A stretch of DNA of 22,085 bases from Candidatus Nanohaloarchaea archaeon (lineage in GTDB: Archaea; Nanohalarchaeota; Nanosalinia; Nanosalinales; Nanosalinaceae), in contig JBKHHG010000010.1 of NCBI GenBank assembly GCA_046539225.1, positions 1-22,085 of the forward strand. Direction: 5' to 3'. The notes under the pieces are model-generated. The model saw only the letters and a program-made list of their open reading frames with translations. It was not told where the DNA came from and searched no databases. A program made the position numbers and the translations under genes. Below, one piece after another: positions 7,344 through 22,084 of this stretch; the first letter of the stretch is position 1; every line of letters starts with the position of its first letter.

Positions 7344-7490
7344 GCCGCATTAGCTCAGCGGTAGAGCGCGTCCTTGGTACGACTGGTTACGCTCAGGTCG
7401 ACACGCAATAAGGCATTCAAGGAATGCCTTTGAAAATGGAATCGGTCAATGAATAGGACGAGGCCCCGGGTTCAAATCCCGGATGTGGCT
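7344..7490 (+). tRNA. tRNA-Thr(GGT) with 75-nt intron (7380-7454) at position 37/38
   Basis: Acceptor GCCGCAT/ATGTGGC, D-stem GCTC/GAGC, anticodon stem CGTCC/GGACG, GGT at 7376-7378, T-arm CCGGG-TTCAAAT-CCCGG. Confidence 0.9.
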
Positions 7491-19793: not shown

Positions 19794-19939
19794 GGGCCTG
19801 TAGCTCAGCTGGACAGAGCGCAAGGTTCCTAATACCTCTTACTCGAGTTCTACGAGAGTTTAGAGGTTAGAGAAGCGAACAACTGTGAGCTTCGAACGGG
19901 AATACCTTGAAGTCGTGAGTTCGAATCTCACCAGGTCCG
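19794..19939 (+). tRNA. tRNA-Arg(CCT) with 72-nt intron (19832-19903)
   Basis: Acceptor GGGCCTG/CAGGTCC, stem CAAGG/CCTTG, CCT at 19828-19830, central helix TTCC/GGGA with 3' bulge ATA. Confidence 0.92.
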
Positions 19940-21601: not shown

Positions 21602-21738
21602 GGGCTCGTAGTTCAGTCCGGCAGAACGCCACCTTCGCAACACTTGGTTTTGCCTCTGCAAAAGTAAGTTCGAGAAAATCTCTTGGATTTTCGACGCGGA
21701 ACAGGTGGAGGCCTCGGGTTCAAATCCCGACGAGTCCA
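21602..21738 (+). tRNA. tRNA-Ala(CGC) with 63-nt intron (21640-21702)
   Basis: Acceptor GGGCTCG/CGAGTCC with G3:U70, discriminator A, stem CCACC/GGTGG, central helix TTCG/CGGA, 3' bulge ACA. Confidence 0.93.
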
Positions 21739-21853: not shown

Positions 21854-22084
21854 GGGCCCGTAGCTCAGCACGGACAGAGCGAGCGGCTTCGGCCGACTGG
21901 TTACCGCATCTTTCCTTTGGGGAAAGCATGCTTAGAGCAGCTCTTCCTTGCGGAAGACTGCGACACTCGATCGATACGCAATGACCAGCTCCGCTGGTCG
22001 ACGGCCATAGGCCGTCATGTTGATCGAACTGACTGCAGTTTGGAAGATACCGCTAGGTCCAGGGTTCAAATCCCTGCGGGCTCG
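21854..22084 (+). tRNA. tRNA-Arg(TCG) with 156-nt intron (21893-22048)
   Basis: Acceptor GGGCCCG/CGGGCTC, stem AGCGG/CCGCT, TCG at 21889-21891, canonical BHB (CTTC/GAAG with bulges GGC and ATA). Confidence 0.9.

Follow-up and report, generated by a model that had tools for sequence, protein, structure and literature searches.

Introduction

SINEs are retroposed by target-primed reverse transcription, and Introner elements are eukaryotic. In archaea, transposed bulge-helix-bulge (BHB) introns have been described in tRNA genes of the Thermoproteales (Fujishima et al. 2010, via PMC4090602); as far as the available part of that source goes, they imply that introns were gained after speciation, presumably by a mechanism at the DNA level, and they are cut by the splicing endonuclease. 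The tRNA-Thr(GGU) gene of Caldiarchaeum contains a 1.8-kb insertion bearing a recombinase, and intron gain is linked to a mobile element in the accessible part of that paper (PMC3293823). Moreover, a high density of MITEs is reported for a Woesearchaeal genome, with no link to tRNA in the portion of the report at hand (PMC11602168), and a 2026 preprint on Asgard tRNA introns, in the part available, calls the arrival of introns an open question.

Here we analyse a conserved RNA core shared by the introns of tRNA-Thr(GGT) and tRNA-Arg(TCG) in a nanohaloarchaeal contig. This core probably forms the conserved head of small, non-autonomous mobile elements that encode no protein and make up a family in DPANN archaea; copies in tRNA loops would be spliced as BHB introns. 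As in the Thermoproteales, highly similar introns occur in tRNAs of different identity and position. However, the lineage is DPANN, the sequence is another one and copies are also found beyond tRNA genes; furthermore, target duplications of 10–56 nt, nesting and a covarying hairpin are not reported for the Thermoproteales introns in the available part of PMC4090602. Like MITEs, the copies are short, non-coding, multi-copy and patchy in close relatives, and lie in intergenic or gene-end positions at sites that are found both filled and empty, but they have no terminal inverted repeats, their duplications are long and variable instead of short and fixed, and no matching transposase was found. 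The direct repeats of a tRNA part that flank the insert, and the use of tRNA genes as hot spots, recall attL/attR at archaeal tRNA genes as in Caldiarchaeum; unlike the element there, so far as the accessible text describes it, the present copies measure 50–157 nt, encode nothing and are also placed in protein gene ends and introns. With SINEs and Introners the family shares duplications of variable length, a 5′ junction that shifts with microhomology and insertions that can become introns. It differs from them in the absence of RVT_1 from five carrier genomes, in the lack of a consistent A-rich tail, in intron copies without duplication and in splicing, for which a protein endonuclease would act on a structured RNA. 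Like the C/D-box guide of the archaeal tRNA-Trp intron, it is a structured RNA inside a tRNA intron, but it has no C/D box pair and no Rfam match, and the head is not bound to one tRNA.

Literature searches on DPANN and BHB introns, tRNA intron transposition and miniature archaeal elements at tRNA genes returned no description of the head family, and searches with the letters of the motif gave only unrelated papers among the matches listed. The preliminary description of the locus, made from the sequence of the window alone, had suspected an undescribed family, with which the lack of an Rfam match and of a describing paper agrees.

Results

The intron-bearing tRNA genes of the window

The source genome (G000) is an assembly of 606,781 bases in 38 contigs with a completeness of 82%, and the window, i.e. 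the whole stretch of 22,085 nucleotides that was analysed, is its contig C10. With introns allowed, ARAGORN gave 27 tRNA genes over all contigs; introns of 46–196 nt are present in 16 of these. In the window, Rfam 15 at the gathering threshold gave four tRNAs and no other family; a tRNA-Gly without intron is also present. The two shared cores are enclosed by tRNA-Thr(GGT) and tRNA-Arg(TCG) (ARAGORN with introns; Rfam tRNA model). The intron-bearing genes are as follows:

7344–7490, plus strand: tRNA-Thr(GGT) (ARAGORN with introns; Rfam tRNA, 53 bits)
19794–19939: tRNA-Arg(CCT)
21602–21738: tRNA-Ala(CGC)
21854–22084, plus strand: tRNA-Arg(TCG) (ARAGORN)

Both core-bearing introns lie at position 37/38 according to ARAGORN, and the joined exons equal the intron-less orthologues, so that removal of the introns restores a canonical tRNA. 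On re-reading the sequence, CGACTGGTTAC is common to both introns (7380–7390 and 21894–21904, 11/11 identical), as had been noted. It opens the Thr intron as claimed, but the Arg intron begins one base earlier. The second shared motif, TCGAYACGCAAT (7398–7409 and 21971–21982, 11/12), was likewise found as described, and perfect hairpins with 3-nt loops follow it directly, namely AAGGCATTC/AAG/GAATGCCTT at 7410–7430 and GACCAGC/TCC/GCTGGTC at 21983–21999. The proposed back-pairing of TCGA with TTGA is part of a predicted 10-bp helix, UCGAUCGAUA/UGUUGAUCGA, in the Arg intron, and is absent from the minimum-energy fold of the Thr intron. The observation that C/D boxes are lacking holds for both: no such box was seen in the Thr intron, CUGA occurs without a C box in the Arg intron, and neither matches Rfam.

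The copy in the tRNA-Thr(GGT) intron

The Thr gene contains one complete copy of the element, with the following parts, all on the plus strand:

7344–7379: 5′ exon, tRNA positions 1–37 (ARAGORN with introns; Rfam tRNA)
7380–7454: intron of 75 nt at position 37/38, one complete element copy
7380–7400: head hairpin P1, CGACUGG / hexaloop UUACGC / UCAGGUCG (P1 covariation; covariance model)
7401–7409: conserved single-stranded linker ACACGCAAU (CGCAA is invariant in 104 aligned copies)
7410–7430: variable hairpin P2 of 9 bp with loop AAG (fold)
7431–7454: intron tail (fold of 7370–7461 and pairing read from the sequence)
7455–7490: 3′ exon (ARAGORN; Rfam tRNA)

A covariance model trained on copies of other genomes and one other copy of the source genome matched 7377–7409 with 39 bits (E 2.4e-7), and the 3′ strand of P1 has one extra G in this copy. 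The likeness of the Thr and Arg cores is more than chance. In the predicted fold, AUCGGUC of the tail (7441–7447) pairs with GACUGGU (7381–7387) to give the splice motif its inner helix, and AUGA (7449–7452) stands opposite UUGG of the anticodon loop, as read from the sequence and the fold. Three of the four central pairs form, giving an arrangement of helix, internal loop and helix.

DNA contigs of four sequencing runs contain, in 4/4 cases, a joint that omits exactly 7380–7454. The matching sides measure 22–28 nt and the flanks differ; most likely these contigs represent intron-less tRNA-Thr genes of other organisms and not alleles of the source. In a contig of run X4, one base at 7397 is missing.

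The copy in the tRNA-Arg(TCG) intron

The Arg copy is longer and composite, and its parts on the plus strand are:

21854–21892: 5′ exon (ARAGORN)
21893–22048: intron of 156 nt at 37/38, comprising an element copy, a nested insert and a right-end module
21894–21904: left half of the head (CGAC UGGUUAC)
21905–21965 (approximate boundaries): nested insert in the P1 loop, made of a hairpin, UUAGAGCAG and a hairpin
21966–21982: right half of the head (CUCGAUCGAU ACGCAAU; nhmmer match 21966–21983)
21983–22016: hairpins P2 (21983–21999) and P3 (22000–22016) (fold)
22017–22040: right-end module, AUGUUGAUCG followed by the hairpin AACUG-ACUG-CAGUU
22042–22048: GGAAGAU, whose GAAG pairs with CUUC of the anticodon loop and whose AU|A is the 3′ bulge (read from the sequence)
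22049–22084: 3′ exon, up to the end of the window (ARAGORN)

In a profile search of the source genome, the two halves of the head score singly with E-values of 0.11 and 5.4, because the nested insert splits the copy. One outer P1 pair is broken, since N4′ (AUCG) fits CGAU and the actual N4 is CGAC. Inserts akin to the nested one follow UGGUUA(C) at two other places of the source genome (C13 7698–7707 and C3 23685–23770), and the inner part of the Arg intron is 75% identical to the latter (E 1.6e-9). The right-end module of this type (UGAUCG and hairpin) also terminates copies on contigs C13 and C4 of the source genome and at loci L021 and L057; in the Arg intron it pairs back with UCGAUCGAUA in the predicted fold. 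The splice motif can be drawn with CUUC/GAAG as a central helix of 4 bp and the bulges GG|C and AU|A, and the fold gives again helix, internal loop and helix. In G007, G012 and G015, the Arg(TCG) site holds unrelated introns that likewise terminate in GAGGAU or GAAGAU. A third intron module (GAGAA-stem-loop-stem-UUCGA) was recognised by eye; when searched with a strict regular expression, it matched one site only.

According to the predicted folds, the start of the head pairs with the intron tail beside the anticodon stem in the Thr as well as in the Arg intron, and the loop between this helix and the anticodon stem can form a BHB central helix with two bulges. The 5′ strand of P1 has thus two alternative partners. 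P1 itself was also considered as the central helix of the splice motif and was rejected, as the loop after UGG has no partner strand.

Structure and covariation of the head

The head consists of 32 nt, N4-UGG-UUACGC-YCR-N4′-AYACGCAA. Its first part is P1, a 7-bp hairpin in which four variable, covarying outer pairs and UGG/YCR close the hexaloop UUACGC; the linker AYACGCAA and a hairpin of free sequence follow. Among 104 aligned copies, CGCAA of the linker is invariant and the A two bases earlier nearly so, a conservation that is partly built in, as the copies were gathered with a fixed pattern that left free only N4, two positions of N4′ and the flanks.

Of 114 distinct copies, 102 have a complete set of four outer P1 pairs, compared with 51.1 when the partners were shuffled (sd 3.1, maximum 61) and with 0, 0, 12 and 4 when the 5′ strand was slid by 1–4 nt; related copies in this count are not independent events. 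In the 104 aligned copies, 97.5% of the P1 cells are paired versus 87.3% after shuffling, a value reached by 0 of 500 shuffles, and 72 cells show double changes versus 13.9, with compensatory changes at four of the seven pairs. For the outer four pairs, eight or more Watson-Crick versions exist. Moreover, three positions change in concert, namely the final base of N4, the base that opens N4′ and the Y of AYACGCAA; they read C, G, C in 82/104 copies and U, A, U in 13/104. The Thr and Arg copies of the window have N4 (CGAC) in common; the Met and Val copies of the source genome have equal N4′ and different N4.

The pair that closes the loop is G.U in 104/104 copies, and the next one is U.G in 68, so that the P1 hairpin is favoured on this strand only, which speaks for RNA or a single DNA strand and against a duplex site. 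The hairpin that follows begins within 0–1 nt of the head in 73 of 109 distinct copies. The 45 nt after the head fold with a median of −13.8 kcal/mol versus −5.2 for random 45-mers of the same loci, and −10 or better is reached by 77% of these copies versus 17% of the random 45-mers and 26% of shuffles. The preliminary description had seen the signs of a functional RNA motif in two introns; conserved single-stranded parts together with covarying or freely varying stems are now found across isotypes and many genomes, which makes the family a real one. None of the three observations that had been named as speaking against it was made: the motif is found elsewhere, covariation is present and no known Rfam family was matched.

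Distribution in the source genome and in other archaea

A profile search of the whole assembly found 11 head sites at E<0.2 in the source genome:

Four intron copies: tRNA-Thr, tRNA-Arg(TCG), a Val(GAC)-like tRNA at C2 c555-707, and a Met(CAT) gene truncated where its contig ends
Three trailer copies: directly behind tRNA-Ser(CGA), tRNA-Phe and tRNA-Arg(TCT), each with the last ~22 nt of the tRNA repeated behind it in degenerate form
One degenerate head: ~140 nt downstream of tRNA-Ser(TGA), just behind a degenerate copy of its 3′ end
Two antisense copies: each directly adjacent to the 5′ end of a different tRNA-Ser gene
One copy on C3: beginning within the stop codon of a TFB-like gene, whose product ends like transcription factor B

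The head intron is thus shared by tRNAs of several identities (Thr, Arg-TCG, Val-like and Met). Nine of the 11 copies share the orientation of the gene just upstream or around them, and next to tRNA genes copies are found in both orientations. In other DPANN records, introns with the head were read from the sequence at 37/38, T-loop and D-loop positions. Nested copies and inserts occur in the source genome, in G008 and at other carrier loci. The core had been taken as a product of tRNA introns as such. This does not hold, as the same head lies behind tRNA 3′ ends, before 5′ ends, at the starts and ends of protein genes and inside a repeat; the search of non-tRNA loci that had been proposed did yield copies outside tRNA genes.

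Of 70 genomes that belong to the order of the source, 39 were positive with a covariance model of the head (R1; 32 positions, 7 pairs), with 1–8 copies each and a patchy distribution within genera. None of four congeners (completeness 68–97%) had a match, versus seven matches in the source genome, and in a looser pattern search the congeners stayed at the noise or control level. In a second order, that of the distant carrier G041, 25 of 101 genomes carry the head, and G041 has 17 copies. In a sample of 41 genomes from the order of the source, 21 had a 14-mer of the motif with at most one mismatch, while the reversed pattern gave a single match overall. With an exact 24-nt pattern and one genome per species, at least 117 loci were collected; among the 80 matches listed, the titles name Nanohaloarchaea, Woesearchaeota, Nanoarchaeota, Iainarchaeum and loosely labelled archaeal MAGs, and none is bacterial. 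A script assigned these copies to genomic contexts, and 52 of the 117 fell in no class. Rfam at E≤1 gave only tRNA and rRNA on thirteen copy-bearing loci. The idea of looking in viruses led to nothing, as the 24-nt pattern had 0 matches in a viral contig collection.

Target duplications, filled and empty sites

Comparing 60 nt upstream with 330 nt downstream of each copy, we found exact direct repeats of at least 12 nt around 23 of 117 distinct copies, whereas the controls gave 0 (reversed downstream sequence) and 1 (reverse-complemented). Repeats of at least 16 nt flank 19 of 117 copies, with 0 in both controls. The repeats are variable in length (10–56 nt) and span the 3′ parts of tRNAs (from the T loop to position 73) or their 5′ parts from position 1; at protein genes they span the start including ATG or the end including the stop codon. 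At every duplicated site one intact copy of the gene is left. In seven of 29 copies with a repeat of at least 10 nt, the repeat reaches the four outer positions of the P1 5′ strand, so the target junction is often inside the hairpin. Copies bounded by duplications measure 50–157 nt (median 90). Terminal inverted repeats were not found, the longest inverted match of the ends being 1–6 nt in 23 bounded copies versus a shuffled mean of 4.3, and the element has no coding capacity. Intron copies lack a target duplication, and at the 3′ end each is adapted to its own tRNA.

Comparison of the same sites between genomes gave several pairs of filled and empty states. At position 37/38 of tRNA-Thr(GGT), a head intron is present in G000, G010, G021 and G008, with further nested material in G008 and a compensated P1 (GGAC/GUCC) in G021. 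An intron of another family occupies the site in G014 and yet another in G030. The gene is intron-less, with adjoining exons, in G003 and G004, both of the same genus, and in G005, and the exons of G004 are 100% identical to those of the window. At tRNA-Arg(TCG), a head intron is present in G000 and, in shorter form, in G007; G012 and G015 have introns of other kinds, and the gene is intron-less in G004, G005 and G009. Behind tRNA-Ser(CGA), two element copies and the duplicated tRNA end are absent from G003, G004 and G005, and G003 retains the same downstream gene. Behind the TFB-like gene, the head of G000 contains a nested insert, that of G001 differs but is followed by the same hairpin, and G002–G004 have nothing. 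In addition, a ~190-nt repeat of G041 carries an element in its tip loop and is also found empty, with no duplication there. At the tRNA-Phe and tRNA-Arg(TCT) sites congeners lack the element, but the downstream flanks are non-syntenic.

Search for a mobilising enzyme

Five carrier genomes were searched, the source genome (82% complete) and four single-contig genomes that are 95–98% complete. RVT_1 (PF00078) and the Y1 transposase (PF01797) were found in 0/5, and the TnpB zinc ribbon (PF07282) was over the cut-off in 0/5. A tyrosine recombinase (PF00589) is present in 3/5 and gave no match in the source genome or in G018, which has four copies of the head. In G010 and G021, two tyrosine recombinase genes closely follow intron-bearing tRNAs; considered as mobilisers of the element, they were set aside and read as ordinary tRNA-targeting elements, with no second att copy within 15 kb of either gene. 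A full-length integrative element bearing the head was not seen in these searches or in the viral contig collection, and neither an autonomous partner nor a candidate enzyme emerged from the families searched.

Discussion

The preferred reading is a family of mobile elements of ~50–170 nt, in which constraint would act on the head and extra hairpin modules follow it or are nested inside it. In a tRNA loop, the flanks and tail of the element would form a relaxed BHB with the tRNA, and the host splicing endonuclease and ligase would remove the copy as an ordinary intron, as suggested by the folds and by the need for these tRNAs to be functional. The Thr(GGT) and Arg(TCG) introns would then be alike because both are copies of an element spliced out of tRNA loops, where it can be tolerated for this very reason. 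Elsewhere, copies persist only at gene boundaries, where a 10–56-nt target duplication spares one intact gene end and would thereby rescue the insertion. The head is most likely the part recognised in movement, as a strand-specific hairpin of RNA or single-stranded DNA. Movement itself we infer only from the comparison of genomes. Because the intron copies lack a duplication and have 3′ ends fitted to each tRNA, the element may have entered pre-existing introns; the near-equal last 6 nt of the unrelated Arg(TCG) introns fit either the creation of introns or a settling in existing ones. Among the roles proposed earlier (guide, ligand-binding, catalytic or mobile), the data favour the mobile one, and nothing was seen that would indicate circles, a guide target, ligand binding or catalysis.

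The main rival is that the head is an RNA module useful to the host, such as a protein-binding, processing, stabilising or circularisation signal or a guide, which would be transcribed together with tRNAs and mRNAs, maintained by selection and dispersed by recombination instead of transposition. The head letters are extremely conserved across phyla, and the near-identity of the 24-nt core could mean a host function under strong selection; the strand-specific G.U pairs suggest RNA, and the prevailing orientation of the copies of the source genome with the gene upstream or around, as well as copies placed exactly after tRNA position 73 or stop codons, fit a signal. However, the head is missing in 31 of the 70 genomes of the order and in all four congeners and is therefore dispensable, and the target duplications, nested insertions, pairs of filled and empty sites and antisense copies at tRNA ends speak against it. 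The proposed search for complements of the motifs was also unproductive, as the 9–10-nt antisense matches in the source genome, where rRNA genes are almost absent from the assembly, are the copies themselves and scattered single matches. Absence from close relatives together with the insertion footprints weakens this explanation, which we regard as unlikely.

It is quite improbable that the copies are decayed integrase-borne viruses or plasmids in tRNA genes, with the duplications as attL/attR and the head as a dif-like arm or core site. Such integration classically leaves direct repeats of tRNA 3′ parts that start in the T loop, tandem arrays of such repeats stand behind one tRNA, tyrosine recombinase genes adjoin intron-bearing tRNAs in G010 and G021, and P1 taken as DNA would be inverted 7-bp arms with a 6-bp spacer. 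But the head is also found in introns without duplication, at protein gene starts and in another repeat, the elements measure merely 50–157 nt and yet their stems covary, the outer 4 bp of the arms vary among copies of one genome, and the G.U pairs would be mismatches on the opposite strand; the recombinase, att and viral searches reported above point the same way. A miniature single-strand transposon of the IS200/IS605 type, with N4 as the target or cleavage tetranucleotide and N4′ as its internal guide by the hairpin, is more improbable still. Its attraction lies in a 4-nt flank that pairs with an internal 4-nt segment near a subterminal hairpin, in the nested insert directly after TTAC and in the strand-specific structure. 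Members of the IS200/IS605 family are not known to make target duplications and have a hairpin of fixed sequence, whereas long duplications (at least 12 nt in 23/117 copies) and a free P2 sequence are seen here, and neither Y1 nor TnpB was detected in the five carrier genomes. As for a single neutral duplication of an intron within the source genome, with no wider meaning, both window copies do have N4 CGAC, but heads in 39/70 and 25/101 genomes of two orders and their compensatory changes leave practically nothing of this idea, which is refuted by the pattern scan, the covariation and both order-wide covariance searches.

Taking the mobile-element reading further, we tentatively consider a more specific version, which is possible though doubtful: the family could be an archaeal counterpart of intron-generating transposons, i.e. 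a structured, protein-less element with a strand-specific intermediate of RNA or single-stranded DNA, in which N4′ sets the junction by pairing with the target end, enzymes of host tRNA splicing and repair carry out excision and insertion, and which serves as a source of new BHB introns in DPANN tRNA genes. If this is true, the long target duplications would be the footprint of an N4′-guided mechanism run by host enzymes.

For genome annotation, the copies yield pseudo tRNA ends, long introns that are mislabelled by tRNA finders and short duplications of gene starts upstream. Since the head element is found in DPANN archaea both as tRNA introns and as gene-end insertions, it bears on the origin and spread of archaeal tRNA introns, whose gain is an open question. 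The family offers a concrete object that is traceable by a 32-position covariance model and by sites filled in one genome and empty in a congener, and that is caught in two states, a spliceable intron and a gene-end insertion with a long footprint. Thereby the question of intron gain becomes testable by population comparison and by RNA and enzyme assays in cultivable nanohaloarchaeal co-cultures.

Covariation and variant forms of the head

In the head, the conserved N4-UGG-UUACGC-YCR-N4'-AYACGCAA hairpin and linker that opens the small putative mobile element of DPANN archaea, columns 7, 20 and 25 of the 104-copy alignment A1 covary three ways, reading C,G,C in 82/104 copies and U,A,U in 13/104. 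Moreover, the outer 3' strand N4' and the two bases that follow it often form a palindromic or G.U-palindromic hexamer in this alignment, such as GUCGAC, GUUAAC, AUCGAU or GUUGAC. An alternative form of the head, with CCUCC-AAUCAC-GGAG and then ...ACACG, lies directly past the stop codon of the TFB-like gene in a relative's genome (L180 of G001), and the hairpin 3' of it, GAGGCCUUAACAGGCCUC, is the same as the one behind the usual head in G000, the Candidatus Nanohaloarchaea archaeon assembly to which the window belongs. The tRNA-Asn intron of G000 (C27 6850-7044) also starts with a head resembling this type.

Other modules in the tRNA introns

A second repeated module in G000, the hairpin RAACUU-CUGA-AAGUUY followed by GAYCAUCAS, stands at the start of four further tRNA introns and, in reversed orientation, forms the end of head-element copies; both orientations are present in introns, and, standing alone, the module adjoins the start codons of two protein genes. 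The two remaining intron-bearing tRNAs of the window carry a hairpin module distinct from the head, GAGAA-stem-loop-stem-UUCGA, which was also found by eye in the tRNA-Arg(TCT) intron on C27 of G000 and in two relatives, G012 and G015, where it lies in the Arg(TCG) introns; as a strict regular expression it matched a single site.

Sites of the two modules
G000 C7 22151-22292, RAACUU-CUGA-AAGUUY module
G000 C4 683-889, same module
G000 C4 28326-28456, same module
G000 C11 5998-6145, same module
G000 C37 2995-3010, same module, additional site
G000 C21 8285-8300, same module, additional site
Window 19794-19939, tRNA-Arg(CCT) with GAGAA...UUCGA intron module
Window 21602-21738, tRNA-Ala(CGC) with GAGAA...UUCGA intron module

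The tRNA-Trp gene of G000 (C1 4445-4714) has an intron of 196 nt, whose first half contains C/D-box-like motifs and whose 3' end carries the CUGAUGAUC-hairpin module. The minus-strand span C2 555-707, called by ARAGORN as Leu(TAA) with a 59-nt intron, reads better as a tRNA-Val(GAC) whose intron of about 80 nt, at 37/38, opens with the head.

Other repeats, recombinases and nested inserts

In G041, a distant carrier of the head from a second order, a repeat of ~190 nt (L138-L142), which bears a CUGAUGA motif and whose terminal stem is long, occurs in at least 14 copies, frequently at contig ends; its tip loop houses the head element, and empty versions are also present. Tyrosine recombinase genes lie directly downstream of intron-bearing tRNA genes in two relatives.

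Tyrosine recombinase genes
L167 8210-9433 (G010), 407 aa
L168 7443-8696 (G021), 417 aa

At another locus (L001 1336-1740), the 3' end of one tRNA is found in four successive copies behind a single tRNA gene, separated by hairpin-rich inserts of 60-110 nt and of differing kinds.

Within the head itself, inserts are nested in G000.

Inserts nested in the head
Window 21905-21965
G000 C3 23685-23770
G000 C27 1022-1080
G000 C2 about 10-58

They are flanked by short direct repeats, namely ACGC on both sides of the insert located after UGGUU and AUACG on both sides of the two-hairpin UAGAGCAG insert. Such repeats around the inserts suggest additional kinds of mini-element that make short duplications.
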